NCBI GenBank assembly: GCA_963845755.1
Contig: CAWJTV010000022.1
Coordinates: 96,001-160,000 of the forward strand
Reading direction: 5' to 3'
DNA from: an uncultured Planctomycetota bacterium
GTDB taxonomy: Bacteria; Planctomycetota; Planctomycetia; Isosphaerales; Isosphaeraceae
Length of the DNA: 64,000 nucleotides
Position numbers and translations under genes: made by a program
Notes under the pieces: model-generated
The model's database searches: none
What the model was told of the DNA's origin: nothing
What the model saw: the letters and a program-made list of their open reading frames with translations, nothing else
Shown here: piece by piece, positions 5,101 through 21,988 of the stretch
Position numbering within the stretch: the first letter of the stretch is position 1
Layout: the number at the start of each line of letters is the position of its first letter

Positions 5101-6218
5101 GGCCTGGTCCCGCTCATCGAAGGCCGGCTTCAGGGTCAGAAGCTCGTAGAGCGTCGCGCCGAGCGAGTAGACGTCACCCCGCGCGTCGGTGACGCCCCGG
5201 AACCGCTCGGGAGCCATGAAGCGGAGGGTCCCGACCAGGTCATGCGAGTGCGAGAGGTCGTCCCCCTCGACCAGCTTCGCCAGGCCGAAGTCGGTGACCC
5301 AGACGTTGCCCTGGGCGTCGAGCAGGAGGTTGGAGGGCTTGATGTCGCGGTGGATCACCCGCTGTTTGTGGGCGTAGTCCAGCGCGTCGGCGACCTGGGC
5401 GCCGAGGCGCGCGACCTCGCGGAAATAGACCGACTCGGACTGACCGAGAATCGAGCTGCTGGCCAGAACAACGCCTTCGGTGGCGGTCGTGTCGCCGGTC
5501 GTCACGATCGCCGTCGAGCTCGACTCGGCGGCAAGGGGAGCCATCGGTGCCTCGGCGAACCGGCCGGTCAGCAGGCCGCGGGAGATCGCCGTGAGCGGGT
5601 CCGCATCCTGCGACGGTCGCCGTCTCCTGCCCCGCACCGATCGCTCTCGGCCCCGGCGTCGCGCTCGGCCGCAGGGCGGAGGCGGCGGACGTCGTCCAGC
5701 ACCCGCTCCAGCCCGACACCGGCGATGTATTGCATCGCGTAATAGAAGACGCCGTCCTGCTGGCCATAGTCGAAGACCGGCACGATGTTGGTGTGGTGCA
5801 GCTTCGCCGCCGACCGCGCCTCGGTCTGGAAGCGCCGCACGTAGTCCCGATCGGCGCGGAACCGTGCGTGCATGACCTTGAGCGCCATGCGGCTCTTGAG
5901 CGATTCGTGCTCGGCCTCGTACACGATCCCCATACCACCGGCGCCGATGCGGCGAAGCAGGACGAACTCACCCAGACGCTGCGGCTCCGGTCCGCCCGAG
6001 CCGAACGGCCCCACATCGAGGCCGGCCCCCTGGCTCTTCTCAGGGCCGACCTCCTCCAGGGCAACCAGTGTGGGAAAGACGGCGCGAATCCGTTCGGCGA
6101 GCTCGGGATGCCTGGCGGTGTATTCGCTGAGCGAGGGCCGCTCGCCCCGGCGGTATCGCACGAGGAAGGCGTCGGCCAGATCGTCGATCGGGTCGAATTC
6201 ACAGGAAGGCTCGCTCAT
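2107..6218 (-). CDS. Ser/Thr protein kinase with WD40 repeats and C-terminal TPR (multiple frameshifts)
   Basis: IGAGGMGIVY, ALK, IHRDIKPSN, DFGLAK and GTLRFMAPE motifs. Many FSPDG WD40 blades and a TPR (ESYHQRGHALFQLQRFPEA) are spread over ORF fragments. Confidence 0.85.
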
Positions 6219-6859
6219 GACCTCATTCCTCCCAGGCCACCCGGCGAGTGCCCCAGGATCCGTTTCAGCCGTTCCAGGGCCCGGATGTACCGCTTGCCGG
6301 CGGCGCCCTCCGAAAGTCCCAACAACTGGGCAATCTCGGCGCGGCTCAATTGCTCGAAGTGGCGCAAGGCCAGCACCTCGCGGTCGAGTGGGTCCATGGT
6401 GTTGAGTCCGTCCTGCACGCGAATCCTGAGCTCGGCACGGACCGCCGCCTCGCTCGGCCGCGTGTCATGCCCCAGGAGCTGGGCGGCCAGCGCGGCCGAG
6501 GACGCTTCTGGCACCGGTCCCCGGCACAACGCCACCTCCTGGTCGGCGGCGCGCATCTGCGCTCCCAGATGATGCCGATGCAACGTCACCAGCTTCTGGC
6601 CGGTGAGGAACCGGAGCCACAAAAAGAACGGCATCGACGGATCGCCGAGGTACTCGGTCAATCGAACGGATGCCTCCAGATACGCTTCCTGGATGACGTC
6701 CGACGCGTCGATCCGCCCCTGCAACCGCCGATCCATCCTCAGCGCAACCATGCGCCGGAGCCGATCGCCGTGCCGTGTCAGCAGGGCCCCCAGAGCCCGC
6801 GGATCACCGCGGGCCGCCTGCTCGAGCAAGTGGTTGGTCACATCCGAGTTGCTGGTCAT
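6215..6859 (-). CDS. ECF sigma-70 factor, planctomycete kinase-associated type
   Basis: RLRRMVALRMDRRLQGRIDASDVIQEAY (region 2) and DREVLALRHFEQLSRAEIAQLLG (region 4). ATGA overlap with the kinase. Confidence 0.92.
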   Translation of the reverse strand: MTSNSDVTNHLLEQAARGDPRALGALLTRHGDRLRRMVALRMDRRLQGRIDASDVIQEAYLEASVRLTEYLGDPSMPFFLWLRFLTGQKLVTLHRHHLGAQMRAADQEVALCRGPVPEASSAALAAQLLGHDTRPSEAAVRAELRIRVQDGLNTMDPLDREVLALRHFEQLSRAEIAQLLGLSEGAAGKRYIRALERLKRILGHSPGGLGGMRS

Positions 6860-7386
6860 CGAAATCACCGTGCCGAGAGTGGTTCACGCCGCAACCAGGG
6901 GCCCGCGCATCCGAGGCCGACGGCAAGATCGCGCACGAACCCCATACAAAGAGTAAACCGCGCAAGCGGACCAAAAGGGGACAGGAAAATGGACCTTTTT
7001 TATGCCTCCCTCACGCATCATATCGAGGAGATCCGCAAGTTTTCAAAGATTCGTGACTTTTTATCGTACCGTTGGGGGCAAGTCGCGCGGTTAAGGGTGT
7101 AGCGACGCCCAGCAGAAGTCTCACAAGGCGGGCGTGCCCGGCGAGAGGTGCGCGGCCGGGACAGCGGCTCCGTCGTGGTATCGCGGACCGTATTCCGACA
7201 GCCCAGAGGCTGATCATGTCCCGTTCATCGTGGCGTTCCTGGCGCGTTTCGATCAGCCAGGCCCGGCGCGGCCCGCGTCGCAACTCGGCGTAGCGGCCGA
7301 AAACGGCCCGCCTTGTCCTGGAGTCGCTCGAAGGTCGGGCACTGCTGACGACCTACGACGCGAGCAGGGTCTCGGCCCTGATCGCC
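6653..7386. repeat. Direct repeat copy 1 (~730 bp): sigma 5' end, divergent intergenic region and dead LExR-xLL N-terminus
   Basis: Near-identical by eye to 14678-15407. Confidence 0.95.
7216..7386 (+). pseudogene. 5' remnant of a planctomycete extracellular (LExR-xLL motif) protein gene
   Basis: Reads MSRSSWRSWRVSISQARRGPRRNSA*RPKTARLVLESLEGRALLTTYDASRVSALIA, with an in-frame TAG at 7291. Confidence 0.7.
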
Positions 7387-7440
7387 AGATTCCCGATGAA
7401 GGCCTCATGTCGAACACATCTTCTTGAGAGGACGCTTCCA

Positions 7441-7998
7441 ATGTTGCGCAGATACATGACAACCCTCGCCCTGGCCGTGCTCTCGATGTCGTTCTTCGCC
7501 ATCGCGTCCGGCTCGCAGCAGGCCCAGGTGCCGCAAACCGGCACTCAGAAGGCCCACACTCAGAAGGCCCACACTCAGAAGGCCCAGCGCATCTTCGAGA
7601 TGTGGATGTACGTCTCGGACCACACCAAGCACGACCAGGTCGATCAGCACTTCCGCAATCATGCGGTCCCGCTCTACCAGAAGCACGGGATCGAGCTGAT
7701 TGGCTCCTGGACCATCCACGTCGAGCCGCCTCACGTGGCTCAAGACCAGAAGCACGCCGCGACTCCGGTCCAGAATCCCCCGGGCAATGCGATCCACAAA
7801 GACCAGAAGCACGCCACGAACGATACCGTGGTCGCGCTCCTCGCCTTCCCCAGCCATGAGGCCGCCGCCGCGTCCTGGAAGGCGATGGCGACCGATCCCG
7901 AATGGACGAAAGAAGTCCAGGCCACCAACCGGGGGCATTACTTCATCAAGTCGGAGAAACTCGGCCTCCAGCCGACGGATTACAGCCCGATGCGGTGA
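7441..7998 (+). CDS. Secreted NIPSNAP-family protein
   Basis: Signal peptide, then IFEMWMY...HFRNHAVPLYQKHGIELIGSW...LLAFPSHEAAAASWKAMATDPEW...LQPTDYSP. A 15-bp tandem repeat (TQKAH x3) lies at ~7542-7586. Confidence 0.8.
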   Translation: MLRRYMTTLALAVLSMSFFAIASGSQQAQVPQTGTQKAHTQKAHTQKAQRIFEMWMYVSDHTKHDQVDQHFRNHAVPLYQKHGIELIGSWTIHVEPPHVAQDQKHAATPVQNPPGNAIHKDQKHATNDTVVALLAFPSHEAAAASWKAMATDPEWTKEVQATNRGHYFIKSEKLGLQPTDYSPMR

Positions 7999-8122
7999 TC
8001 GGATCGACGATCGGGATTTCCCGTCGAGAAGGCCGCGCGATCCACACGTCCCGGTCGCGGGGCGATCGTTCTCACGACGCCCGCGACCGGCCACACTTTG
8101 CCACATTTCCGAGGAGACTACC

Positions 8123-10696
8123 ATGAGACCATCGAGCATTCCGAATCGCCCTGCGTTCGCCCGTCATCCCGGGAGATTGCGGGCCCTGAACCTCACCATC
8201 ATGACGTGTCTCGCCACGGTCATGCCGGGAGGTTCGCTACGAGCACAGGTCGCGAAATTCAACCAGATCGACATCACGATCCAGACCGGCGGCGACGACC
8301 TGCGCAAGAGCAGCTCGGCGACCGCGACACTGGAGTCGCCGAAGGGAGCCCAGCTTCAGGTCATCACCTTGAAGGGGCATAACCAGGGGAGTTTCGACAA
8401 CAACTCGATGCACAAGATCCACGCGGACTTGAAGCATCCGATGACGAGGGCGGAGATCGGGCATATCGTCATCGCGCTCCAGGAGCACAAGGGGATGTTC
8501 CAGGGTGACGATAACTGGAACGTCCAGAGTGTATCGGTCGCGCTGTCGAACAAGGGCGCCGACGAGACCCCGATCATGTCCTTCTCGGGCGACCCGCTCG
8601 CGAGGCTCACGGGCAGCGTCCACAGCTTCTCGCTCCCGGAGGAGGCGCGAGGGCCCGCGGGCACGTTCAATTCGATCCAGTTCTTCATCCTGACCGGCGG
8701 CGACGACCTCCGGGGAGACAGCTCGGCGACCGCGACCCTGCTCTCGGCGAACGGAGTCAAGCTCCAGGTCCTCACGCTGAAGAACCAGAATCAACCGGGC
8801 TGGGGGAACAACTCGAGGAACTTGATCTCGCTCGAACTGAAGCCGCCCAGGCCCCTCTTCGCCATCCAGCACATCCAGATCGACCTCCAGTCGCACGACA
8901 AGTTCGGCGAGACTGCCGACAACTGGAATGTGCAGGACGTGAATGTGATGCTGGGCAACGACGGCGTCGGCAATCGCGAATTGATGGGAGCCGTCGGCGA
9001 ACCGTTGCAAAGACTCACCCACAGCCTGCCCAGCCTGGTGATCGACAATCCGCACTTCCACAGGAATGTCCTGGGTCCGCAGAAGGCTCCCGCCGATTGA
9101 GGGGCTTCGTCGATCTCCACACCCATCCGCTCTCGAACCTCGCCTTCGGGGGAAAGTTCATCTATGGAGGCGTGGATGTCGGCTCGCTCCTCCCGGCCGA
9201 TCCTGACTGCCACCACAATGTCCGCGCGAAGTGCATGCAGCAAGCCCTGGGTCACGACGGTTCGACACATGGACCGCCTATCAAGAGTCTCAATCCCATC
9301 GGGGGGGCCTCGGACTTCAACTCGTGCGGTGACCTCATCCGCTGGCAGGTTATTCACAATGCCCAACAAAAGAGTATCCCTCCCGCCGCAGACGAGAGCG
9401 ACGACGGCACAGCGCGCCGGACTTCAACGAATGGCCGGTATGGAATGATGTCACGCACCAGAAAATGTGGGTCGAATGGATTCGGCGCTCTACGAGGGCG
9501 GATTGCGGGTCATGGTCGCACTCGCCGTGAACAACAAGACGATGGCAGACATGACGTCGGGGCCGGGAGACGGACCGACCGACGACCGCGCGTCAGCCGA
9601 CCTTCAGATCAAGGAGATCAAGGCGTTCGTGGGACGGCATGCCGACTTCATGGGGATCGCTTCCACTCCAGAGGAACTGGAACAGCTCGTCCGGGCGAAC
9701 AAACTCGCCGTCGTCCTGGGCGTGGAGATCGACAATATTGGAAACTTCAATCATGTGTCGCCTCTGACTGAGAAAGCGATCAGTGCAGAGATCAATCGTC
9801 TGTACCAGGAAGGTGTGCGTTATATCTTTCCCGTCCACCTCCTGGATAATGCCTTCGGAGGAACGGCCGCCTACCAGGACCTCATGAATTACTCGAACCG
9901 TCGTGAAGCTGGGCACTGGTGGGACCTCCGGCGCACGCCGCACTATAGCTATCACTTCGGGCAGGATGGTGTCGGAGGCTTCTGGTTCACCTCCGGCGTG
10001 CTCGCCAAGCTGGCGATCGTATTCGATCCGCCCAACTATCCCGCACCTAAAGACGGGAAGGGCCAGGCGAATAAACGCGGTCTGACGCTGCACGGCGAAT
10101 TCGCGATCAGGGAGATGATGCGGCACGGCATGCTGATCGACATTGATCACATGTCAGAGTTATCTCAGGCCCGGACGATTGAGATTGCCCAAAAGGCCGG
10201 TTATCCCCTCAATAGCGGCCACAATGTCCCGCTCTCCTCCCCGGGAGGCTCCGAGCGGAACATGACCAGCGCAAATTACGCGGCCATCGGCAAGCTGCAC
10301 GGAATGGCCGGGATCGGCATCTCGAGCCTGGATGCCCAGCAGTTCGTGACGAAATACCAGGCCGTCACCACGGACATGGGGCCTGGGGCCGTGGCCGGCT
10401 TTGGCACGGACACGAACGGCCTCGCGGTCGGGATGCCGCCCCGGACGGGCTCGGCGGTCCACTACAGCGACGCGTTCCCGAGGAGCCGGCTCGGTACCAG
10501 GACGTGGGACTACAACCACCAGGACGGCCACGGCGGCGTCGCGCACTATGGGATGTTGCCGGATTACCTGGAGGACGTCGGGTCCCTCCGGCAGCAGGGG
10601 GGGAAACATGTGGTTGACGAGATGATGTTTGGCGCCGACTATTTCCTCCATACCTGGAAGAAGTGCGAGGCGGAAAAGGCGAGCGTGAAGCCGTGA
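8123..10696 (+). CDS. Secreted membrane-dipeptidase (M19)-like amidohydrolase with two tandem N-terminal beta domains (frameshifted)
   Basis: RBS GAGGAG and a signal peptide. Two TGGDDLR...DNWNV repeats are followed by GFVDLHTHP, LGVEID, IDIDHMS, SGH, GFGTDTNG and GVAHYGMLPD. Single-base fixes near 9096, ~9410 and ~9485 join three ORFs. Confidence 0.75.
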
Positions 10697-11124
10697 GAGA
10701 CCGTCCCGCGCGGCGACCCTTGGACCGAGAGGGACCTGTTTCCCGACCCGACCGCGGGCCTGAGCCCGCGATCCGGAAGGGGGGCGCAGCCCACTCGTTT
10801 CGCACGTCGGCGCCCCGAGTCGTCGCGAGTGGCGAGTCTCGGGAGCGTCGAGCCGGGCCGGATCGGTATCCGCTTTCCTCGCCCCTCGCGACGATCCCGG
10901 GTCCCGTCCGGACCGCTCGCTCACGTGGCCGGTCACAACGGATCCGATGACCCGTCAAATATTGAAAAGTAAAAAAACTTTTACGACACATCTGTCACGT
11001 CCCCGCCGGCGGGCGTCGTCGGGATGATTCGCACGAAATGCCTGCATCGTGGCCATCGAGCCAATGTCATTCAACTCGGGGAGTCGCCCGGGGCGCTCCC
11101 CTCCCTTACTCCCTGGAGGTCACC

Positions 11125-13125
11125 GTGCCAATCCGCGTCATCTGCCCGTCCTGCGGCCGAACGAGTCGCCGACCGGACCGAGCCATCGGGCGGACCATCA
11201 CATGCCAGGCTTGTAGTTACAGCCATATTCTAACAGAAGACATGACGGAGCCCGAGGACGAACCACGCCCGAAGGCAGCCCAGTCATCCCGAGTGCAGCC
11301 TCGGACGCAACCGGCCGTGCCGGCGCAACGGCCGACCAGGACCACGCCCGTTGACCCTTCGCATGACGGTCACGACGTTCCGGCCGGGCTACGCCTGTCG
11401 GGACGGGCCCTGGTGAGCGGGGCGATTGGCGCGGCCCTGCTGTTGATCGTGTCGGCCTGCCTGGCCGTCACCATGTTGCTCGGTTCTGCCAAGGTGAGCG
11501 AGGTTGAGGTGGCGTCCGTCGCAGACCCGAAGGCGCCCCAGACCCCGGCCGCCGCAGCCCCCAAACCGGCCGCCGTCAACTCCAGTGGCGCGGCGGCCCA
11601 GCCCGATCCCGCCGGCACGAACCCGCCGGCGACCGCCGCCGACAAGACCGGCGCCTTGACTCAGCAATCCGCCTCCAACGGCGAGAAGTCGCCCGCCGCG
11701 GATACCACCGCCGCGAACCCGACCCCAGACACGCCCGCAACGGATACCACCGCCGCGAGCCCGACCCCAGACACGCCCGCAACGGACACCACCGCCTCGA
11801 ACCCGACCGCGGACACGCCCGCAGCGGACACCACTGCCGCGAACCCGGCCGCCCCCCCCGCGGCGAACCCGCCCGCGACCGTCGCCGATGCCAACGCCGC
11901 GAACCCACCGACGACGCCCACCGACGCCAACGCCGCCGGTGCGAGCCCGACCGCGGCCACGGCCGCCGCCGACTCCAGTGGCACGGCCGCCCAGCCGGAC
12001 CCCGCCGGCGCGAACCCGCCGGCTACCGCGCCCGCCACGGACGCCAACGGTACGAACCCGGCCGCCAACGCCGCCGGCGCGAGCCCGACCGCGGCCACGG
12101 CCGCCGCCGACTCCAATGGCACGGCCGCCCAGCCGGACCCCGCCGGCGCGAACCCGCCGGCTACCGCGCCCGCCACGGACGCCAACGGTGCGAACCCGAC
12201 CGCACCCCCCACCGCGAGCCCACCGGCGACCACCGCCGATGCCAACGCCGCGAACCCATCGGCGACGCCCACCGACGCCAGCGCCGCCGGCGCGAGCCCG
12301 ACCGCGGCCACGGCCGCCGCCGACTCCAGTGGCACGGCCGCCCAGCCGGACCCCGCCGGCGCGAACCCGCCGGCTACCGCGCCCGCCACGGACGCCAACG
12401 GTGCGAACCCGGCCGCCAACGCCAACGCCGCGGGCACCGGCGCCGCGAACCCTGCCGCCCCCCCCGCCGCGAACCCACCCGCGACCGCCGCTGATTCCAA
12501 CGCCGCGAACCCGACCACCGACACCGGCGGCGCGAACCCGACCGCAGCCAACACCGACGGCTCGGCCGCCCAGCCCGATCCCAACGCCGCGAACCCGACC
12601 GCACCCCCCGCAGCCAACACCAGCGGCACGGACCCGCAGTCCGACCCCGCCGGGACGAGCGGCGCTGGTACGACCGGGACCGGCACCTCGGGTACCGGCA
12701 CGACAGCCACCGGCACAACCGGCACCGGTTCGTCGGGCATCGGCGTGCCGGCGCCGGGCCCGACCGTAGTCGGCTCGCCAGGGACTGGTCCGACGGTAGT
12801 CGGCTCGCCAGGGACTGGTCCGACGGTAGTCGGCATGTCCGGCCAGGGCAAGGGTCCCCGTCCGACCGGGACCGGTGCGCCGGCCAACGGCAAGGGCTCC
12901 CGTCCGACCGGGACCGGTGCGCCGGCCAACGGCAAGGGCCACCGTCCGACCGGGACCGGTGCGCCGGCCAACGGCACGAAAGGCACCGGCGCGTCGAGCC
13001 ACAAGCCTCCCTCGCAGGCGCGACCCCGGCCGGGACCGCACCCGACGCCGCACACACTTCCGGCGAGGCAGAAGAGCCCGCACCCGTCGCAACCAACTCC
13101 AAAGCACCGCGCGCACACGAGATGA
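11125..13125 (+). CDS. Zinc-ribbon, single TM helix and long low-complexity Ala/Pro/Thr/Asn repeat protein
   Basis: GTG start after GGAGG. CPSC...CQAC zinc ribbon, TM ALVSGAIGAALLLIVSACLAVTMLLG, then nested repeats. Confidence 0.8.
   Translation: MPIRVICPSCGRTSRRPDRAIGRTITCQACSYSHILTEDMTEPEDEPRPKAAQSSRVQPRTQPAVPAQRPTRTTPVDPSHDGHDVPAGLRLSGRALVSGAIGAALLLIVSACLAVTMLLGSAKVSEVEVASVADPKAPQTPAAAAPKPAAVNSSGAAAQPDPAGTNPPATAADKTGALTQQSASNGEKSPAADTTAANPTPDTPATDTTAASPTPDTPATDTTASNPTADTPAADTTAANPAAPPAANPPATVADANAANPPTTPTDANAAGASPTAATAAADSSGTAAQPDPAGANPPATAPATDANGTNPAANAAGASPTAATAAADSNGTAAQPDPAGANPPATAPATDANGANPTAPPTASPPATTADANAANPSATPTDASAAGASPTAATAAADSSGTAAQPDPAGANPPATAPATDANGANPAANANAAGTGAANPAAPPAANPPATAADSNAANPTTDTGGANPTAANTDGSAAQPDPNAANPTAPPAANTSGTDPQSDPAGTSGAGTTGTGTSGTGTTATGTTGTGSSGIGVPAPGPTVVGSPGTGPTVVGSPGTGPTVVGMSGQGKGPRPTGTGAPANGKGSRPTGTGAPANGKGHRPTGTGAPANGTKGTGASSHKPPSQARPRPGPHPTPHTLPARQKSPHPSQPTPKHRAHTR
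11575..12975 (+). repeat. Nested intragenic tandem repeats
   Basis: 39-bp DTTAxxPTxDTPA units, three ~120-bp AAGASPTAATAAADS...DANG blocks, 30-bp GPTVVGSPGT x3 and 42-bp GKGxRPTGTGAPAN x3. Confidence 0.9.
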
Positions 13126-13204
13126 GATCGCGATCAACGGACGATGCCCCGCAAGTAGCATCGAGTCGCGCCAACGAAGAACCATCCCTTTCGGAGAACG
13201 GACG

Positions 13205-14554
13205 ATGATCTTCCTTCGACGATGCCTGGCCGGCCTACTCCTGCTCCCCGGTCTCTGGCCCGCCGCGTCGGTCCGCGCCGACGAGGCGGAGGACGAGGTG
13301 ATCGCCGCGCTCAAGAAGCTCGATGGCAGGCTCATCCAGGACCCGAAGATGGCGGGCAATCCAGTCGTTCAGGCATACCTCCGGGGCGTCAAAGTCACCG
13401 ATGAGGCGCTCCCGGAGCTGTCGAAACTCAAGCAGCTCCGCATCTTGTTCCTCGACCGAAGCCATGTATCGGACGCAGGGTTGAAGGTCCTTCGTGCCTG
13501 CGAGAACTTGCACGCCCTGGGCCTCCAAAGCACCGCGGTGACGGACGCGGGGTTGAAGGAACTCCGAGGACTCGGGAACCTTCGCGCACTGCACCTCACT
13601 AACACGAGGGTGACCGACGCCGGGCTCGAGGAACTCCGCGGACTCGAGAACCTACGGACGCTCGACCTGGGCGGGACCCGTACGACGGATCGAGGGAGGA
13701 AAGAGCTGCTCGCGGCCTTGCCGAAGCTCAGGATCATCGACTCGACTCGCCGGCAAAGACTCGCGCATGCGAAGGCAAGCCCATCGGCGTCGGTCCGACT
13801 GCCCAAGGACACGAAACCCGACGTGCGGTTCGTCTTCGAGTTCGACAAGCTGGACTTCCACTCGGGCGATGCCCAGAAGGACGCCGACCTGAAGGCGGAC
13901 TGCGATTCCTTCGCCGAGACGATGCGCAGCCGGGTCTATCCCATCCTCAGGGAGATCACCGGCGTCCATGTAGGGCAATACCAAAAGGAAATCCGATACA
14001 CGATCCATCCGGCCGGGACCATGGGCGGGAGGACCGTCGGCAATCACGTCGACCTGGACCAGCGCTATAGCGTCAGTTGGGAGGATGATCGTCTCCCTCA
14101 CGAAATACATGAATTGATTCATGTTATCAATGGTTATTCCCATGTGCTACGAGGAGGCGGCGACCACATCTGGCACGAGGCGCTCATCGCCGCCGTCGAA
14201 GTGCGCCTGGGTTGGCAACCCTCGATGACTCGGGCTCGCATGATGGCCGAAGCCGGGAGACTCCTCGAGAGGATCGAGGCGTCGCATGACATACCGAATT
14301 CCTACTCATCCCGCTGCGGGCTCCTCTCGGACCGACTTGGGGTCCTGTATTTCGATCTCGGGGAGGAGGCCATCGGGCGGCTCTACGGGAGCACGATCAA
14401 GCCTCTCCCCACTCGCAAGCCGAGCAAGGAGATGATTGACGCCTGGCGCACGGAGGCGGAGGCCAGGAAAGTTCAGGCCCTCCTGGAGATGCTGAAGCAC
14501 GATTACAAGTTTACATTCGACCAGAGGACGCGCTTGGCGCTCGGCTGCCCATAG
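13205..14554 (+). CDS. Secreted leucine-rich-repeat protein with C-terminal HExxH domain
   Basis: Signal peptide, 24-aa LRRs (VTDAGLKELRGLGNLRALHL), then HELIH followed by WHEAL. Confidence 0.8.
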   Translation: MIFLRRCLAGLLLLPGLWPAASVRADEAEDEVIAALKKLDGRLIQDPKMAGNPVVQAYLRGVKVTDEALPELSKLKQLRILFLDRSHVSDAGLKVLRACENLHALGLQSTAVTDAGLKELRGLGNLRALHLTNTRVTDAGLEELRGLENLRTLDLGGTRTTDRGRKELLAALPKLRIIDSTRRQRLAHAKASPSASVRLPKDTKPDVRFVFEFDKLDFHSGDAQKDADLKADCDSFAETMRSRVYPILREITGVHVGQYQKEIRYTIHPAGTMGGRTVGNHVDLDQRYSVSWEDDRLPHEIHELIHVINGYSHVLRGGGDHIWHEALIAAVEVRLGWQPSMTRARMMAEAGRLLERIEASHDIPNSYSSRCGLLSDRLGVLYFDLGEEAIGRLYGSTIKPLPTRKPSKEMIDAWRTEAEARKVQALLEMLKHDYKFTFDQRTRLALGCP

Positions 14555-14677
14555 GGGGCCCTTTCACAAAGGCCGGGTTCGCGACGCACGACGCGATCGC
14601 GATCGCGATCATCGACAACGGTGGCTGGCCTGTAGACATCGTCCACGGTCCTCACTCCCATGAATTGAAGTCCGCTC

Positions 14678-14894
14678 CTCGGTCGATCGAACGGATGCTT
14701 CCAGATTACGCTTCCTGGATGACGTCCGACGCGTCGATCCGCCCCTGCAACCGCCGATCCATCCTCAGCGCAACCATGCGCCGGAGCCGATCGCCGTGCC
14801 GTGTCAGCAGGGTGCCCAGGGCCCGCGGATCACCGCGGGCCGCCTGCTCGAGCAAGTGGTTGGTCACATCCGAGTTGCTGGTCATCGAAGACAC
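14678..14894 (-). pseudogene. Truncated 5' copy of the ECF sigma gene
   Basis: MTSNSDVTNHLLEQAARGD...DASDVIQEA, then a stop caused by an extra base. Homology ends near 14678. Confidence 0.85.
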
Positions 14895-15236
14895 CGTGCC
14901 GAGAGTGGTTCACACCGCAACCCAGGGCCCGCGCATCCGAGGCCGACGGCAAGATCGCGCGAACCCCTCAAAGAGTAAACCGCGCAGGCGGACCAAAAGG
15001 GGACAGGAAAATGGGAATTTTTTGACTCCCTCACGCATCATATCGAGGAGATTCGCAAATTTTCAAAGATTCGTGACGTTTTCTTGTACCGTTGGGGGCA
15101 AGTCGCGCGGTTAAGGGTGTAGCGACGCCCAGCAGAAGTCTCACAAGGCGGGCGTGCCCGGCGCGAGGTGCGCGGCCGGGGACAGCGGCTCCGTCGTGGT
15201 ATCGCGGACCGTATTCCGACAGCCCAGAGGCTGATC

Positions 15237-15407
15237 ATGTCCCGTTCATCGTGGCGTTCCTGCGCCGTTTCGATCAGCCAAGCCCGGCGCGGCCCGCGTC
15301 GCAAGCCGGCGTAGCGGCCGAAAACGGCCCGCCTTGTCCTGGAGTCGCTCGAAGGTCGGGCGCTGCTGACGACCTATGACGCGAGCAGGGTCTCGGCCCT
15401 GATCGCC
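15237..15407 (+). pseudogene. Second 5' remnant of the LExR-xLL gene
   Basis: MSRSSWRSCAVSISQARRGPRRKPA*RPKTARLVLESLEGRALLTTYDASRVSALIA, with TAG at 15312. Confidence 0.7.
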
Positions 15408-15559
15408 GACTCGCCCATTGTTCGGGCGAGTCAGGGGAACTAAACGGTCTGGCGGTCGGGTCGGCTCTCATCAGGGAATCCACAGAGTGATCATTCCTGA
15501 GTGAGGTTGCCGCCTGCGCCGTCGGGAAGGTCAACTCAATAACAACGAGGAGGTGATCG

Positions 15560-16450
15560 ATGACAAGCCTGGCGAAGAGACGGTGGTTTCACGGGATGGT
15601 GGCGACCCTGCTCCTCACGCTTGGCGCGGCAGCGGAGACGAGGGCGGACACCGTGGTGTACGCCACCGCCGACAACGGCACAACGAACCTGTTCGGCACG
15701 ATGGACCTGACGACAGGTCAGTTCACCCAGATTGCGACGACGACCCCACTGTTCGGATCCATCACTGCCGGGGCTGGTGGAACCCTCTACGGCGGGGAGG
15801 GCAACCTCAACTACAACCTCGCCACGATCAGTCCCTCGGGCGTGCCGTCCCAGTTCGGCACGGTCACCGCGCCCAGCAATTCCTATGGCTTCACCGGGCT
15901 CGCCTCGGCGGGAGCGGCGGGTTTTTACGCCATTTACCAGATCGGTTCGTTACCCGGGCCATTCTCGGCAACCTTCGAGCACATTTCCGCCGACGGCAAT
16001 AGCTCGAGCGTCGTGGGGACTCTGAGTACATCGTTTTGGAGCTTCAACAGCGGCAACCTCGCTTTCGGACCGGATGGGAAGCTCTACTTCGACGTCTGGC
16101 CCACGTCGAGCAAAGTCGCCACTCTCTACCAGGTGAATACCACGACTGGGGCCGCGACCGCGGTGGGCTCTGGCCTGGGCACGACCGACCCCCTGGCGCT
16201 GGTCTCCGCCGGATCAACGCTCTATGGAATCGACACCTTCATCCCCTCCGCTCCGTCGATCTTTACGATCAACACCACTACAGGCGTGGCGACCGAGATC
16301 GGCACGGTCTCTGGCCTGCCGACGGGATACACGATCGACACGATGGGTGGCAGCGTACCGGAGCCTGGCACGATCACGCTTCTTTGCACTGGCACACTTG
16401 TCCTCCTGGTTTTCTCTCGGCACGTCCGTAGGACCTCATGCAGGGGGTAA
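15560..16450 (+). CDS. PEP-CTERM sorting domain protein
   Basis: RBS GAGGAGG, signal peptide, C-terminal VPEPGTITLLCTGTLVLLVFSRHVRR. Confidence 0.9.
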   Translation: MTSLAKRRWFHGMVATLLLTLGAAAETRADTVVYATADNGTTNLFGTMDLTTGQFTQIATTTPLFGSITAGAGGTLYGGEGNLNYNLATISPSGVPSQFGTVTAPSNSYGFTGLASAGAAGFYAIYQIGSLPGPFSATFEHISADGNSSSVVGTLSTSFWSFNSGNLAFGPDGKLYFDVWPTSSKVATLYQVNTTTGAATAVGSGLGTTDPLALVSAGSTLYGIDTFIPSAPSIFTINTTTGVATEIGTVSGLPTGYTIDTMGGSVPEPGTITLLCTGTLVLLVFSRHVRRTSCRG

Positions 16451-16482
16451 GATCCGTGCAGGGGGTGCCGGGCCCAGTTTGA

Positions 16483-16617
16483 GAACCAGGTGAACAGGAA
16501 AAGAAAGGCGGCGGGTGAGGCCCTCGCCGCCAAGAAAGTCTCTGGGGCCCGGCGAGTCCCGGCGCTGGTACCTGCGCCAGGGTCCACTTGCTCATTCATT
16601 TCATTGCGGACCGCATC
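16483..16617 (+). promoter_or_regulatory. Conserved 5' leader (candidate cis-regulatory element)
   Basis: Aligns by eye with 19374-19502. Contains a GGCGGCG...CGCCGCC hairpin and the ATTGCGGACCGCAT motif. Confidence 0.55.
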
Positions 16618-16635
16618 GAAACAAGGAGCTTCACC

Positions 16636-19269
16636 ATGTCTCTTTCCACCTGGCTTTCGGGGAGTTTTTCGCACAGCCTGGCCCGGCGCGCGCAGCGCCC
16701 TGGCCCGGCGACAGCGTCGTCCCACCGCCGGCACACCTTCCGGCCCAGTCTGGAAGGACTCGAGATCCGGCTCACATTGAGCCTGACCACGCTGGCTACG
16801 TTCGTCGGCAACGGCGGTGAAAGCCCGATCGGCGGCGTGATCATGGACAGCAGCGGCAATCTCTATGGCACGACCGAGTATGGAGGCGCTGACAGCCAAG
16901 GCACCGTTTTCGAGCTCGCCCAGGGCGGCAGCACCATCACCCCCCTGGCGTCGTTCAACGGCACCAACGGAGCCAATCCACAGGCCAGCCTGATCATCGA
17001 CAGCAGCGGCAATCTGTACGGCACCACGTTCTATGGAGGCACCTCGTGGAACGGAACGACCAATGACGGTTATGGCACGGTTTTCGAGGTGGCGAAGGGG
17101 AGCGGCACGATCACCACGCTGGTCTCGTTCACCGGCGCCAATGGCAACGGTGCGTACCCGCGTGGCGGCGTGATCATGGACAGCGGCGGTAATCTGTACG
17201 GCACAACGGAGGAAAGCCGCGGAGGCTACGGCGAGGTTTTCGAGTTGGCCCACGGCAGCGGCACGATCACCTCGGTCAACCTCACCGTTGGCGAAGACCC
17301 GCAGGGCGGCGTGGTCATGGACAGCAGCGGTAATCTGTACGGCACAGGGACCGGAGGAATCGACGACATCGTTTTCGAGCTGGCCCACGGCAGCCGCGAG
17401 ACCACCGAGCTGGCTGAGCTCAACAAACCCATCGGCGCAGACCCGTATGACAGCCTGATCATGGACAGCAGCGGCAATCTGTACGGCACAGCGGCGGAAG
17501 GAGGCGCCTACCAAGACGGCACGGTTTTCGAGTTGGCCCACGGCAGCCACAAGCCCACTGCCCTGGCTTCGTTCAACGGCACCGACGGCAGAGAACCGTA
17601 TGCCAGCCTGATCATGGACAGCAGCGGCGATCTGTTCGGCACAACGTGGGAGGGAGGCGCCTCCAGCGACGGCACCGTCTTCGAGCTGGCCCAGGGCAGC
17701 GGCACCATCACCACCCTGGTCTCGTTCAACGGCACCAATGGCGCAGGCCCGAAAGACGCTCTGATCATGGACAGCAGCGGCAATCTGTACGGCACAACCG
17801 CTGGTGGAGGCGCCTCGGGCGAGGGCACGGTTTTCGAGCTCGCCAAGGTCGGCAGCGGGTACAGCAGCACGATCACCACGTTGGCTTCGTTCACCGGCGC
17901 CAATGGCATCGGTGCACACCCGGCAGACACCTTGATCATGGATAACAGCGGCAATCTGTACGGCACAACGCGTAATGGAGGCGTCTTCGGAGCCGGCTCT
18001 GGTGGTTATGGCACGGTTTTCGAGATGGCCCAGGGCAGCGGCACGATCACCACCCTGGCTTCGTTCAACGGCTCCGACGGCGCAGATCCGGAGGCCGGCC
18101 TGATCATGGACAGCAGCGGCAACCTGTACGGCACAACGTGTGGAGGAGCCTTCAACGGCGGCACGGTTTTCGAGTTGGCCCACGGGAGCGGCACGATCAC
18201 CACGCTGGCTACGTTCAACGGCACCAACGGTATGACCCCGTCTGCCAGCCTGATCATGGACAGCAAAGGCAACCTGTACGGCACAACATCTCAAGGAGGC
18301 GCCACTTTCGGCGTCTCGGATTTCGGAGACGGAACCGTGTTCGAATTGGCCCAGGGGAGCGGCACGATCACCACTCTGGCTTCGTTCAACGGCACCGACG
18401 GCGAAGCCCCCGATGGGGCCCTGATCATGGACAGCAGCGGCAATCTGTACAGCACAACATCTGAAGGAGGCACCTCCAACGACGGCACGGTTTTCGAGCT
18501 GGCCCATGGCAGCGGCACGATCACGACGCTGGCTTCGTTCAACGGCACCAACGGGTCAACACCGCTTGCCGGGCTGATAAGGGACAGCGGCGGCAACCTG
18601 TACGGCACGGCGTATGGTGGAGGTGCCACCGGCGACGGGACCGTTTTCGAGCTGGCCCATGGCAGCGGCACGATCACGACGCTGGCTTCGTTCAACAGCG
18701 CCGACGGTCTAGGTCCGTATGCCAGTCTGATCATGGACAGCAGTGGCAATCTGTACGGCACAACGTCTGGGGGAGGCCTCTCCTGGGGCACGGTTTTCAA
18801 GCTGGCCCACAACAGCGGCACGATCACCGCCCTGGCTTTGTTCAACGACAGCAACGGTGACGGTGAAAACCCGCTTGGCGGCCTGATCATGGACAGCAGC
18901 GGCAATCTCTACGGCACGACTCTTTTTGGAGCAGGCACCGCCGCCTCGGGAACGGTTTTTGAGCTGTCAGGGGCCGATGCCCTGCCGGCTGTGCGAATCG
19001 GCGGTTTGCGTTCCTCCACTGGCGCCGGCGCATCTCGAACACTCACCGCCAACGTTCCGGATGCCGTCGGCACCACCGACACCGGCGATGCCGGCACAGT
19101 CGACCTCACGAGCAACGACAGCACGGCCGGCCTGGCCGCGAATGACACGGCCGCGGAGATTGGAACGGATCCCTTCGGCGGGCTAGTTCCGCAAGAGAAA
19201 GGTAAGCCATCGATCACGGGCACGCTCTTCAGCTCGACCACGGGCAGCCTGAGCGCGGATGGTTCTTGA
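16636..19269 (+). CDS. Extracellular Gloeo/Verruco (GloVer) tandem-repeat protein with LExR-xLL N-terminus
   Basis: RPSLEGLEIRLTLS, then many ~48-aa repeats LIMDSSGNLYGTT..GG....GTVFELAxGSGTITTLASFNG. Confidence 0.9.
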   Translation: MSLSTWLSGSFSHSLARRAQRPGPATASSHRRHTFRPSLEGLEIRLTLSLTTLATFVGNGGESPIGGVIMDSSGNLYGTTEYGGADSQGTVFELAQGGSTITPLASFNGTNGANPQASLIIDSSGNLYGTTFYGGTSWNGTTNDGYGTVFEVAKGSGTITTLVSFTGANGNGAYPRGGVIMDSGGNLYGTTEESRGGYGEVFELAHGSGTITSVNLTVGEDPQGGVVMDSSGNLYGTGTGGIDDIVFELAHGSRETTELAELNKPIGADPYDSLIMDSSGNLYGTAAEGGAYQDGTVFELAHGSHKPTALASFNGTDGREPYASLIMDSSGDLFGTTWEGGASSDGTVFELAQGSGTITTLVSFNGTNGAGPKDALIMDSSGNLYGTTAGGGASGEGTVFELAKVGSGYSSTITTLASFTGANGIGAHPADTLIMDNSGNLYGTTRNGGVFGAGSGGYGTVFEMAQGSGTITTLASFNGSDGADPEAGLIMDSSGNLYGTTCGGAFNGGTVFELAHGSGTITTLATFNGTNGMTPSASLIMDSKGNLYGTTSQGGATFGVSDFGDGTVFELAQGSGTITTLASFNGTDGEAPDGALIMDSSGNLYSTTSEGGTSNDGTVFELAHGSGTITTLASFNGTNGSTPLAGLIRDSGGNLYGTAYGGGATGDGTVFELAHGSGTITTLASFNSADGLGPYASLIMDSSGNLYGTTSGGGLSWGTVFKLAHNSGTITALALFNDSNGDGENPLGGLIMDSSGNLYGTTLFGAGTAASGTVFELSGADALPAVRIGGLRSSTGAGASRTLTANVPDAVGTTDTGDAGTVDLTSNDSTAGLAANDTAAEIGTDPFGGLVPQEKGKPSITGTLFSSTTGSLSADGS

Positions 19270-19373
19270 CATCCAGCGCTCAGTCAATCGATCGCGGACC
19301 GCACCGCAAAAAAGACGGCGGACTTGCTGAAAAAGGCCGGCAACGCCAAGGCATAGCGTTCCGACGACGACCG

Positions 19374-19502
19374 GAACAAGTCAACAGAAAAAGCGGCAGG
19401 TGAGCCTCACCGCCGCCCAGGGGCTTGACCGGATCGGCAAAGCCCTGGCGCTCGGTCTGCGCGCGGGGGTGCTTGCTCAATCAGTGTATCGCGGACTGCA
19501 TC
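19374..19502 (+). promoter_or_regulatory. Conserved 5' leader (candidate cis-regulatory element)
   Basis: Homologous to 16483-16617. Contains hairpins GCGGC..GGTGA/TCACC..GCCGC and CCAGGG...CCCTGG and the ATCGCGGACTGCAT motif. Confidence 0.55.
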
Positions 19503-19573
19503 AGCGTTCGTGAGGGTGTCAGAGAGGCTGTTCATCGATCGAGATTGTTTAACATCAAGGGAGCAACAGAACC

Positions 19574-21988
19574 ATGTTTTCCAGCAGGCGGAACGATCGG
19601 CGGAGGAGCGGGCTGGCAACGATCGAGGCACGGAAACGGCGGCGGATACAGCCGACGTTGCTGGCGCTGGAGGACAGGCGGCTGCTGTCCAACATCGTCG
19701 TGACCAACACCGCCAGCAGCGGCACCGGCTCGTTGGCCTGGGCGGTCGGCCAGGCGAATTTGAACGGGGGCGCCGAGACGATCACTTTTGACAAAACGGT
19801 GTTCAAGACGGCACAGACCATCGACCTGAACGGCAGCCGGCTCGAGCTGAGCGACACGACCGGGACGGAGACGATCACGGGTCCCAAAGCGGGCGTTACC
19901 GTCAACGGCGGTGGCCTGAGCGGGGTGTTCGCGATCGACCCGGGTGTCAAGGCGTCGATCTCGGGACTGACGATCACCGGCGGCAGCACCGGGGGCTGCG
20001 GCGGCGGGGTGGATAACTCCCTTGGCACGGTCGCGTTGACCAACTGCACCGTCAGCGGCAACTCCTCAGTCGGTAACGGCGGCGGGGTGTATAACCTCTC
20101 TGGCACGGTCGCGTTGACCAACTGCACGATCAGCGGCAACTCGTGCGCCAACGGTAACGGCGGCGGTCTCAACAACTACACGGGCATTGCCAAGCTGACC
20201 AACTGCACGATCAGCGGCAACTCCGCCAACAGCGAAGGCGGCGGTCTGATAAACTCCGGCACGGCCACGCTGACCAATTGCAGCGTCAACGGCAACTTCG
20301 TCAATGGGGAAGGGGGCGGCATGGACAACTTCAGCATTGCCACGCTGACCAATTGCACCATCAGCGGCAACTCGGTCGGCTTTTTCGGCGGTGGTGGCCT
20401 GTACATCCACGGCGTTGGCACAACCAAGCTTCGCAATTGCACCGTCAGCGGCAACTCCGCCCCATACGGCGGTGGCCTGTATGTCAATGGCGAAAGCACG
20501 GCCACGCTGACCATTTGCACCGTCAGCGGCAACTCTGCCAAAGTCGGGGGTGGCATCCATGACAATGGCACGGCCACGCTGACCAATTGCACCGTCAGCG
20601 GCAACCAGGCCAACGCGGGGGGCGGCATCCTGATGGAGGGCGGCGGTGCCGTCAGCATCAGCAATTGCAAGTTGACCGGCAACGAGGCCCTCGGCACTCC
20701 AGCCGGCGGTGGGTACGGCGGCGCCATCGAGGACATGTCATCCTCGTCCGGCACGCTGACCGTCACCAATAGCACCTTCGACGCCAACGAGGCCATCGCC
20801 GTCGGTCCCAACGATCCCATCGTCAGTCCCTCCTACATCTTCGCAGCGGGCGGCGCGATCGACCTGAATCTGGCCAGTACCGGCTCGGCCACGATCAGCA
20901 ACAGCACGTTCACCGGCAACGAGGCGCTCGGCGGCAGCCCCGGCGCCAGTGCGGGCGGAGGGGCGCTCAGCAATTCCAGCAACGTGGGTGCGACCCTGAC
21001 CGTCACGGACTGCACGCTCAAGGACAACGAAGCCCTCGGTGCGGCCGACGGTGACGGTGTAACCAACTTCGGCTCCGGCCAGGGCGGCGGCATCAACAGT
21101 ATCGGCACCTTGACCGTTAGCGATTCGACCCTGACCGACAACCTGGCCCAGGGCGCGCCTCTGGCAGCGGACGTCGTCCCCTCGCAGGCAGTCTTGAGCA
21201 ACAGTGCGACCGCCGGCGGCGGCATCTTCTGCCTCGACCTCGCCGGCGGCCCCGTGCTGATTGCCGACAGCACGCTCACCGGCAATCAGGCGGTCGGCGG
21301 CTCCGGGCCGGCGCCGGCCCTCGCCGAAGGAGGCGGCATCTCCCTGGTCCTCGTTCCTTCCGGCCTCGTGGCCGACTGTACGGTCAACAACAACGTGGCT
21401 CAGGGCGGGGCCGGCGGCGCGGGCACGGCCGGCGCCGACGGCGTGAGCGGTGGCATCGACCTGTCGGGTGGCTCGGTCGTGACCGTCACCAACACCACCG
21501 TCAATCAAAACCAGGCCATCGGCGGCGCCGGCGGCGCCGGTGCCAATGGCGGCTCCGGCGTGGGCGGCGGCATCAACGTCGGCACCGGCTTCATCCTTTT
21601 CGGTGCCCCCGACAACTCCTCGCTGACGCTCATCGACTGCACACTTAACAAGAATGAGGCCATCGGCGGCGCCGGCGGTTCGGGCGCCAGCGGCGGCGAC
21701 GCCTGGGGCGGCGGACTGTCGGTCCTGACCGGTTCCGCCGCCCTTACCAACTGCACGGTCCACGCCAACCAGGCCAACGGCGCGAATGCCTACGGCGGCG
21801 GGATTTATGCCCTCGACAGCACCGTGGACGTGGAGAATTCCACCGTCAACGGCAACCAGGCCAACGGCTCGGTGGACGGCGAAGGTGGAGGGATTTATGC
21901 CTATGACACCACCTTGACTCTCGTGAACACGACCGTGAAAGGCAACAAGGCCACGACCGCCTACAGCAATATCTTCGACGGCCCGTGA
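19574..21988 (+). CDS. Extracellular right-handed beta-helix (Pmp-like, Gly-rich) protein with LExR-xLL N-terminus
   Basis: LLALEDRRLLS, then repeated LTNCTxSGNSA..GGG and GGAI motifs. Confidence 0.88.
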   Translation: MFSSRRNDRRRSGLATIEARKRRRIQPTLLALEDRRLLSNIVVTNTASSGTGSLAWAVGQANLNGGAETITFDKTVFKTAQTIDLNGSRLELSDTTGTETITGPKAGVTVNGGGLSGVFAIDPGVKASISGLTITGGSTGGCGGGVDNSLGTVALTNCTVSGNSSVGNGGGVYNLSGTVALTNCTISGNSCANGNGGGLNNYTGIAKLTNCTISGNSANSEGGGLINSGTATLTNCSVNGNFVNGEGGGMDNFSIATLTNCTISGNSVGFFGGGGLYIHGVGTTKLRNCTVSGNSAPYGGGLYVNGESTATLTICTVSGNSAKVGGGIHDNGTATLTNCTVSGNQANAGGGILMEGGGAVSISNCKLTGNEALGTPAGGGYGGAIEDMSSSSGTLTVTNSTFDANEAIAVGPNDPIVSPSYIFAAGGAIDLNLASTGSATISNSTFTGNEALGGSPGASAGGGALSNSSNVGATLTVTDCTLKDNEALGAADGDGVTNFGSGQGGGINSIGTLTVSDSTLTDNLAQGAPLAADVVPSQAVLSNSATAGGGIFCLDLAGGPVLIADSTLTGNQAVGGSGPAPALAEGGGISLVLVPSGLVADCTVNNNVAQGGAGGAGTAGADGVSGGIDLSGGSVVTVTNTTVNQNQAIGGAGGAGANGGSGVGGGINVGTGFILFGAPDNSSLTLIDCTLNKNEAIGGAGGSGASGGDAWGGGLSVLTGSAALTNCTVHANQANGANAYGGGIYALDSTVDVENSTVNGNQANGSVDGEGGGIYAYDTTLTLVNTTVKGNKATTAYSNIFDGP

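Follow-up and report, generated by a model that had tools for sequence, protein, structure and literature searches.

The question raised by this locus is why one short motif, ATYGCGGACYGYAT, precedes several genes with unrelated protein bodies. The locus lies in a 64-kb stretch of DNA (contig C22:96001–160000, CAWJTV010000022.1; referred to as the window) from the genome (14.27 Mb, 64% G+C) of an uncultured bacterium of the Isosphaeraceae (Planctomycetota, class Planctomycetia), and the motif recurs upstream of four genes or gene fragments (g1 to g4) whose products start with an LExR-type signal. An earlier note on the window had proposed an undescribed cis-acting element, i.e., a structured RNA, an antitermination signal or a regulator site. 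The structured-RNA option was borne out, in that the element is widespread, its helices covary, G-U pairs mark the sense strand and no Rfam family matches it. The motif (referred to as box B) is probably the 3′ end of an element of ~110 nucleotides (nt), in which it would serve as the 3′ strand of an H-type pseudoknot, and the whole is read here, with fair confidence, as a new cis-acting pseudoknotted leader RNA for post-transcriptional control of the downstream cistron.

A scan of the window located the exact motif at 7180–7193, 15201–15214, 16603–16616 and 19488–19501, always on the + strand, which also bears a one-mismatch variant at 19291–19304. The ATG starts of g1 to g4, taken from the sequence, lie at 7216, 15237, 16636 and 19574, resulting in motif-to-start gaps of 22, 22, 19 and 72 nt, respectively, so that the four positions, the gaps and the variant came out as the earlier note had given them. 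Five exact copies were found in the entire genome, four of them in the window, versus a chance expectation (own estimate from base composition) of ~0.7 per genome and 0.003 per window. Matches with up to two mismatches were unremarkable (7 in the window vs. 3.6 ± 1.9 in shuffles), and the motif signal resides in the exact and extended matches. Because copies 1 and 2 share a 737-nt duplication (6653–7386 = 14678–15407, 95.1% identity), the window holds three independent examples, in agreement with the earlier count. The leaders of g3 and g4 are alignable over ~110–140 nt, again as described before, and precede unrelated bodies, i.e., a GloVer-repeat protein (TIGR03803) and a Beta_helix protein (Pfam), respectively.

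From 5′ to 3′, the element comprises an A-rich tract, a first helix (P1), a junction, a second helix (P3), an A/U-rich linker (..UCAUUGUAU), box B, ~10 nt, the Shine-Dalgarno (SD) sequence, ~7 nt and the start codon, with the consensus gcGGccgGtGaG......ccgccaagca.....ctcaccggcccggca...ccC.gGCGctcgGtctgcGCgC.gGg......gc.....catt..a.cGC.GaCc. P3 is a GC-rich hairpin, long (12–17 bp) and imperfect, with a conserved apical loop (UCGGUCUGC) and a stem sequence that varies by copy (CCGG/CCGG, CGUG/CACG, UCGG/CCGA). Local minimum-energy folds placed GGUCU in a hairpin apical loop in 91/106 cases, 77 of which had 12–17 enclosing pairs. The loop bases GGUCUGC (box A) are complementary to box B, i.e., (C)GCAGACC; the earlier note had recognized this block (as GGCGCT...TGCGC) but overlooked the pairing of its loop with the motif. 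In most subtypes, P1 is a long-range helix (CCGGUGAGG/CCUCACCGG) around a conserved ..ACCGCCAAGCA.. loop, for which covarying versions were found (GGCGGGG/CCCCGCC, GGGGAGG/CCUCCCC), while g1, g3, g4 and the subtypes on contigs C27 and C29 of the same genome have a local hairpin instead. The previously described GCGGC...GCCGC hairpin is only one of two pairing modes of the 5′ half, and neither the long-range nor the local P1 is universal. Some 45 positions of the element are conserved, many of them unpaired. The pseudoknot loops would measure 2 nt (loop 1), 0 nt (loop 2) and ~13–20 nt (loop 3), and four loci (L026, L060, L070 and L094) carry a linker insertion of ~27 nt that forms a perfect extra hairpin within the pseudoknot's long loop.

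The helices were assessed in an alignment built without any structure (A5) and in a second alignment of 111 sequences that included four other families (A7). In A5, 81.6% of cells were paired, versus 78.3 ± 0.3% in shuffles and 27–49% in slid controls, and 128 cells showed double changes versus 58 in shuffles, with neither value being reached by any of 500 shuffles. In A7, 83.0% of cells were paired (77.9% shuffled; slid controls 31–46%), and 161 double-change cells were counted versus 59 shuffled (0/500), with 25 of the 30 pairs being compensatory; for P3, 80.1% of cells were paired and compensatory change occurred in 9 of 11 pairs. The pseudoknot was spotted by eye and then tested, its helix being absent from both alignment models. 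This 7-bp helix was paired in 94.2% of cells (91.3 ± 0.3% in shuffles; slid controls 20–49%) and displayed 24 double-change cells versus 6.9 ± 2.1 in shuffles (0/500), with compensatory change in 5 of 7 pairs and independent double changes at five positions. Individual variants include GGCCUGC/GCAGGCC, GGUCCGC/GCGGACC, GAUC../..GAUU and GGUUUGC/GCAAGCC. Moreover, the helix contains 26 U-G and 8 G-U cells, and since these would read as C-A mismatches on the opposite strand, the sense strand is the one that folds. The predicted structure is thus an H-type pseudoknot, with a hairpin as stem 1 and a covariation-backed pairing between its loop and a downstream strand.

Some other arrangements were tried and set aside. 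A local P1 hairpin as universal 5′ helix was rejected, two of its positions being paired in only 63% and 50%, and a pairing of the 5′ GCGG with the P1 loop CCGC was dropped for want of covariation in divergent sequences. A conserved peptide (..IADRI..) across box B is non-coding, because its frame varies relative to that of the downstream gene. Finally, a palindromic operator was rejected, the palindrome being confined to g3. Partial elements with P1 and P3 and lacking box B were observed on contig C19 (389243–389346) and in L026 (1780–1852) and L034 (1925–1999), 80–120 nt before LExR genes.

The reach of the element extends well beyond the window. An nhmmer profile made from the window leaders alone recovered additional copies on contigs C29, C19 and C27, amounting to 12 in the genome at E ≤ 0.01, and a BLAST search with the g3 leader yielded matches of 77–87% identity in three related genomes. 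With a sequence-only covariance model (R1), 41 of 121 family genomes yielded 189 matches, up to 15 in a single genome. A structured model (R2) matched 37 of these 121 genomes at 1e-4, bit scores rising from ~74–81 to 106–118. Within a 151-genome sample of the class, R2 also matched members of four other families (f3, 2/19; f4, 4/35; f5, 3/30; f14, 3/5), and no match was obtained in the remaining twelve sampled families. An exact-pattern scan of named genomes pointed to at least 119 loci; 18 of the 80 listed were confirmed by R2, and the majority of the pattern matches listed were chance hits in unrelated GC-rich taxa. Leaving aside one Alcaligenaceae-labelled contig (56.8 bits), the 15 strongest R2-confirmed named loci are labelled as planctomycetes (Gemmataceae, Pirellulaceae, Planctomycetaceae, Planctomycetia, a Planctomycetota metagenome-assembled genome and Singulisphaera sp. 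GP187), and the remaining two of the 18 confirmed among the matches listed are weak.

This distribution bears on whether the element has a function at all. The similarity might simply be a residue of gene 5′ ends having been duplicated recently, given that copies 1 and 2 arose by a recent duplication and that recombination relics are present at 19270–19356. Such an origin is extremely improbable, however, as the element is kept across five families of a class with unrelated flanks and coding sequence, and as its helices carry compensatory substitutions.

In Rfam 15, no covariance model matched the whole window at gathering score, region 6800–19800 gave only two chance-level hits at E ≤ 5, neither of them at the element, and 20 diverse element-bearing loci gave no match at E ≤ 1, so that the earlier proposal of an undescribed element held. 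A literature search likewise found no description of it. The candidate cis-regulatory RNA Rhodopirellula-1 is the only planctomycete-labelled motif named in Weinberg et al. 2010 (PMC2864571), where it has no Rfam accession in the table and where its alignment header expects overlap with a "Transposase-resistance" motif; the Rhodopirellula-1 sequences given there share none of the blocks of the present element. The element is a well-supported candidate RNA family, and its mechanism is inferred.

Subsequent focus is placed on what follows the element. An SD sequence and start codon lie at most 110 nt away in 91/107 copies and, measured from the end of CGCAGAC, the start codon is found 23–24 nt after box B in 53 of these 91 (22–25 nt in 62), with a second spacing class at 77 nt that includes g4. 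This sharp spacing peak argues against a separate small RNA or a kinase-gene 3′ untranslated region (UTR) that would be unrelated to the following gene. A few copies without a nearby SD-bearing open reading frame (ORF) (e.g., L017, L054, L076, L101, L141–L144) and the above-mentioned box B-less copies would suit such an RNA. Yet no same-strand gene is present upstream of copy 1, which is situated between divergently oriented genes, and tandem arrays hold one element per gene, making this explanation very improbable.

The downstream genes are varied in their bodies (TIGR03118, GloVer, beta-helix, a weak PEP-CTERM match and others; at least six unrelated families), and 59/107 of them encode the strict LExLExR pattern, or at least 79/107 by our own reading. 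As genomic background, strict LExLExR occurs in 212 of the 9,663 ORFs with 200 or more amino acids, and ~210–360 ORFs of the genome were seen to have an LExR-type N-terminus, i.e., a basic stretch followed by L-E-x-L-E-x-R-x-L-L-S. Pfam and NCBIfam searches with three full-length carriers (g3, g4 and the TIGR03118 gene) revealed no family over the LExR region. The earlier note had placed the leader before every LExR start. This is correct within the window, where an ORF scan found g1, g3, g4 and the short g2 as LExR starts, all led by the element, but not genome-wide, where it lies near only 5/212 strict-pattern ORFs. Because only ~3% of the genome's LExR genes have it, the element is not a general LExR companion, and in other families it is also found ahead of ordinary signal-peptide genes.

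A closer bond exists with a particular N-terminus. The N-terminal word S-S/T-W-L is in this genome confined to element-led LExR genes, and is conserved as a peptide, given that its third codon positions vary. The same leader plus ~20 N-terminal residues (MSLSTWLSG..) stand ahead of differing bodies in g3 and in a gene of L021. Given these shared leaders and N-termini on differing bodies, the 737-nt duplication and the relic at 19270–19356, the data fit a cassette-like spread of the leader and the first ~20–55 codons onto new bodies. The earlier idea of a leader-plus-signal module is thus retained insofar as the duplication copies the leader with ~55 codons and the N-terminus is shared, but not as a module that accompanies LExR signals generally. 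Element-led genes often have an in-frame stop or frameshift between the SSWL word and the LExR motif, e.g., TAG in g1 and g2 and TAA at codon 6 in the C29 copy (L001), with further cases in loci of other genomes (L024, L035, L055 and L080).

The genes upstream reveal a second association. On contigs C27, C29 and C19, the gene order is an extracytoplasmic function (ECF) sigma factor, a Ser/Thr kinase with TPR, the element and a gene, in some cases with another element–gene pair behind it. A PF07638 sigma gene accompanies 6/6 element clusters of the genome, 0.25–8.5 kb upstream on the same strand or, in the window, divergently oriented, and PF07638 has 83 matches in the 14.3-Mb genome. In other genomes, 42/46 elements have a same-strand upstream ORF ending at most 200 nt away, often at 18–50 nt; these 42 ORFs include 16 with TPR, 2 with WD40 and 1 with a kinase domain. 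The earlier note had missed this link to ECF sigma and kinase genes.

Such tight genomic linkage could mean that the box B region is a DNA-level site, i.e., a promoter (–10/–35) or an operator for the neighbouring ECF sigma factor or another regulator, followed by a short 5′ UTR. A box B end 23–24 nt before the start is also compatible with a –10 element and a UTR of ~16 nt, the g3 motif core (TGCGGACCGCA) is palindromic, and no sigma-70-type promoter (TTGACA, 16–18 nt, TATAAT) was detected on the + strand before the window copies. Nevertheless, protein-binding half-sites would not be expected to show compensatory changes linking box B to the P3 loop ~35 nt away, nor G-U pairs specific to one strand, the consensus box B is non-palindromic, and 110 conserved nt with covarying helices go far beyond the needs of a promoter, which renders a DNA-level site quite unlikely. 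Kinase-linked planctomycete ECF groups are described in PMC7826278. Like group-specific ECF sigma promoter motifs, the element is non-coding, conserved and linked in the genome to ECF sigma genes, but it spans ~110 nt rather than ~30 nt, has covarying helices and G-U pairs, and sits after the kinase gene instead of before the sigma gene.

The promoter scan returned two sigma-70-type sites, both on the – strand (7046–7017 and 15066–15037) and facing the sigma gene. In the rRNA leader on contig C27, ~590 nt 5′ of the 16S gene, a promoter-like site was observed (TTGACT, 17-nt spacer, TAGTAT), because of which the organism seems to use sigma-70-type promoters; unlike this rRNA leader, the element-led genes lack one. 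A de novo promoter search by eye 5′ of P1 was abandoned, the A-rich tract alone being general and GAAC words occurring at inconsistent distances.

Alternatively, the element might work at the level of transcription, with P3 terminating or attenuating transcription between the sigma/kinase operon and its targets, or with the leader as a loading site for processive antitermination of the very long genes behind it. P3 forms a strong GC-rich hairpin, with CUUUUUC after it in the "MLFSSWLRN" subtype and at least 5 U among the next 9 nt in 33/111 copies, the element frequently lies 18–50 nt past a kinase stop codon, and downstream genes can exceed 1,400–2,300 codons. On the other hand, a U-tract is absent from ~70% of copies, a terminator scan found none at the four window copies, and box B, being located downstream of P3, would be unable to prevent P3 from forming during transcription. 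Moreover, the fixed 23–24-nt distance to the start is unnecessary for a transcriptional device, so that this alternative, too, is unlikely. Known processive antitermination signals, i.e., ops/JUMPStart with RfaH, the LoaP leader hairpin, EAR and rrn boxA, likewise reside in the leaders of long operons whose products are secreted or placed at the surface. However, ops is a short DNA element acting on the non-template strand without covarying RNA helices, and the linker of the present element is unlike the best boxA-like words of the organism's own 16S leader (matching 9/13 positions of the boxA consensus). The ops- or boxA-like antitermination signal suggested in the earlier note thus found no support, and TGCTC..TCATT was rejected as a boxA-like word, being unlike those of the 16S leader.

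For the favoured cis-acting leader RNA, the element would act in cis and post-transcriptionally on the RNA of the following cistron, by setting translation initiation and/or mRNA stability. The probable means is the binding of a protein or small ligand acting in trans, since many of the ~45 conserved positions are unpaired and since no supported helix sequesters the SD. It would thereby be an output-side control element of clusters that start with the genes for an ECF sigma factor and a Ser/Thr kinase, the leader and the first ~20–55 codons having presumably spread jointly by duplication and recombination onto new bodies.

Several observations weigh against this reading. Because box A and box B are highly conserved, the covariation rests on a minority of sequences, and the shuffle control ignores the relatedness of the sequences. 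A C-A mismatch occurs at one pseudoknot position in 8 sequences, and the pseudoknot of copy 3 (g3) is weak (5 bp with a bulge). RNAalifold predicted zero pairs in a gappy 47-sequence alignment (A4) and, with 8 sequences, recovered P1 and P3 fragments and not the pseudoknot. The 5′ half folds differently between subtypes, with g1 and g3 lacking the long-range P1. Moreover, no simple occlusion mechanism is visible because the SD lies outside every supported helix, and, with the kinase stop located 18–50 nt before it in many loci, the element may lie between cistrons instead of forming a primary 5′ UTR.

A more far-reaching proposal, which we consider possible though rather doubtful, is that of a Planctomycetia-specific regulatory RNA class, either a riboswitch or the operator of an RNA-binding regulator, that forms the post-transcriptional arm of ECF sigma/kinase modules and gates cassette-like exported surface proteins. 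In a bolder version, the element would also mark mRNAs for translation-coupled dedicated export, together with the co-inherited SSWL...LExR peptide.

Pseudoknotted riboswitch aptamers in 5′ leaders (SAM-II, preQ1-II/III, fluoride, c-di-GMP-II) share with the element a leader of ~100 nt, an H-type pseudoknot made from a hairpin loop and a downstream strand, highly conserved unpaired nucleotides, and several copies per genome before functionally related genes. Here, however, no Rfam model matches, the SD lies outside the pseudoknot, the genes (exported structural or adhesin-like proteins) point to no ligand or metabolite, and the linkage to ECF sigma and kinase genes would be unusual for a riboswitch. 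Translational operators that are bound by proteins and contain pseudoknots (T4 gene 32, E. coli rpsO and the alpha-operon leaders) similarly have the pseudoknot at the ribosome-binding site or just 5′ of it, with a fixed spacing to the start codon, but they control the gene of the RNA-binding protein itself, whereas at least six unrelated families follow the present element.

The very large genomes of planctomycetes encode dozens of ECF sigma factors with partner Ser/Thr kinases, along with hundreds of exported proteins whose LExR-type N-terminus is unexplained. A literature search found no described target or regulatory RNA for kinase-linked sigma modules. On the output side of such modules, the element would be the first conserved cis-element that can be tested, with ~190 natural variants on hand. 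If a ligand or protein partner exists, a new RNA class would have been found in a phylum poorly represented among those described RNA families that we could find. The element moreover illustrates how a leader and signal-peptide cassette may be copied onto new protein bodies.

In the window itself, R1 and R2 matched all four copies on the + strand. Copy 1 (7087..7193), also supported by sequence and by the duplication, precedes g1, with box B GCGGACC at 7183–7189 and the box A equivalent GGTGCGC at ~7147–7153. Copy 2 (15107..15214) is its duplicate before g2. Copy 3 (16508..16616) precedes g3 and has its P3 5′ strand at 16558–16565, a loop containing GGTACC at 16566–16573 and the 3′ strand at 16574–16582, followed by box B GCGGACC (16606–16612), the SD AAGGAG and the ATG at 16636. 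Copy 4 (19393..19501; duplex of –20.3 kcal/mol) precedes g4, with a local P1 hairpin at 19393–19417, P3 strands at 19438–19451 (5′) and 19461–19476 (3′), the P3 loop at 19452–19460 including box A GGTCTGC (19454–19460), and box B GCGGACT at 19491–19497. An element remnant on the + strand (19270..19356), consisting of a linker and the box B variant fused to a kinase 3′-end relic, directly follows the g3 stop, and the same junction occurs in L025. This relic (..LLKKAGNAKA*, 19305–19356) lies just 5′ of the g4 leader, and in other genomes the same words are the genuine C-terminus of the preceding TPR kinase, because of which leader cassettes seem to have been copied along with the kinase tail.

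The ECF sigma factor gene of the window (6215..6868, – strand; Pfam PF07638, NCBIfam TIGR02984) is divergent from copy 1 and is followed downstream by a Ser/Thr protein kinase gene (4405..6218, – strand) in two frames (5571–6218 and 4405–5637). The 737-nt duplication includes 215 nt from the 5′ end of the sigma gene, the element and ~55 codons of the LExR gene, as well as the – strand sigma-70-like promoter (7046–7017/15066–15037). On the + strand, g1 (ATG 7216, in-frame TAG 7291–7293) and g2 (ATG 15237, ORF end 15443, in-frame TAG 15312–15314) are truncated 5′ fragments, g3 (16636..19269) encodes an LExR-signal protein with 13 GloVer repeats (TIGR03803), and g4 (19574..21988) encodes an LExR-signal protein with a right-handed beta-helix (Pfam Beta_helix). 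The stops and frameshifts among element-led genes, including the two-frame kinase, may stem from indels in the assembly or from genuine paralogue decay. A gene located between copies 2 and 3 (15560..16450, + strand) has a weak, sub-threshold PEP-CTERM match, and its homologue on contig C27 is itself preceded by an element. Finally, a 695-amino-acid ORF (11038–13125) consists mostly of Ala/Pro/Thr/Asn-rich tandem repeats, preceded at its N-terminus by a zinc-ribbon-like CxxC..CxxC stretch and a membrane segment.

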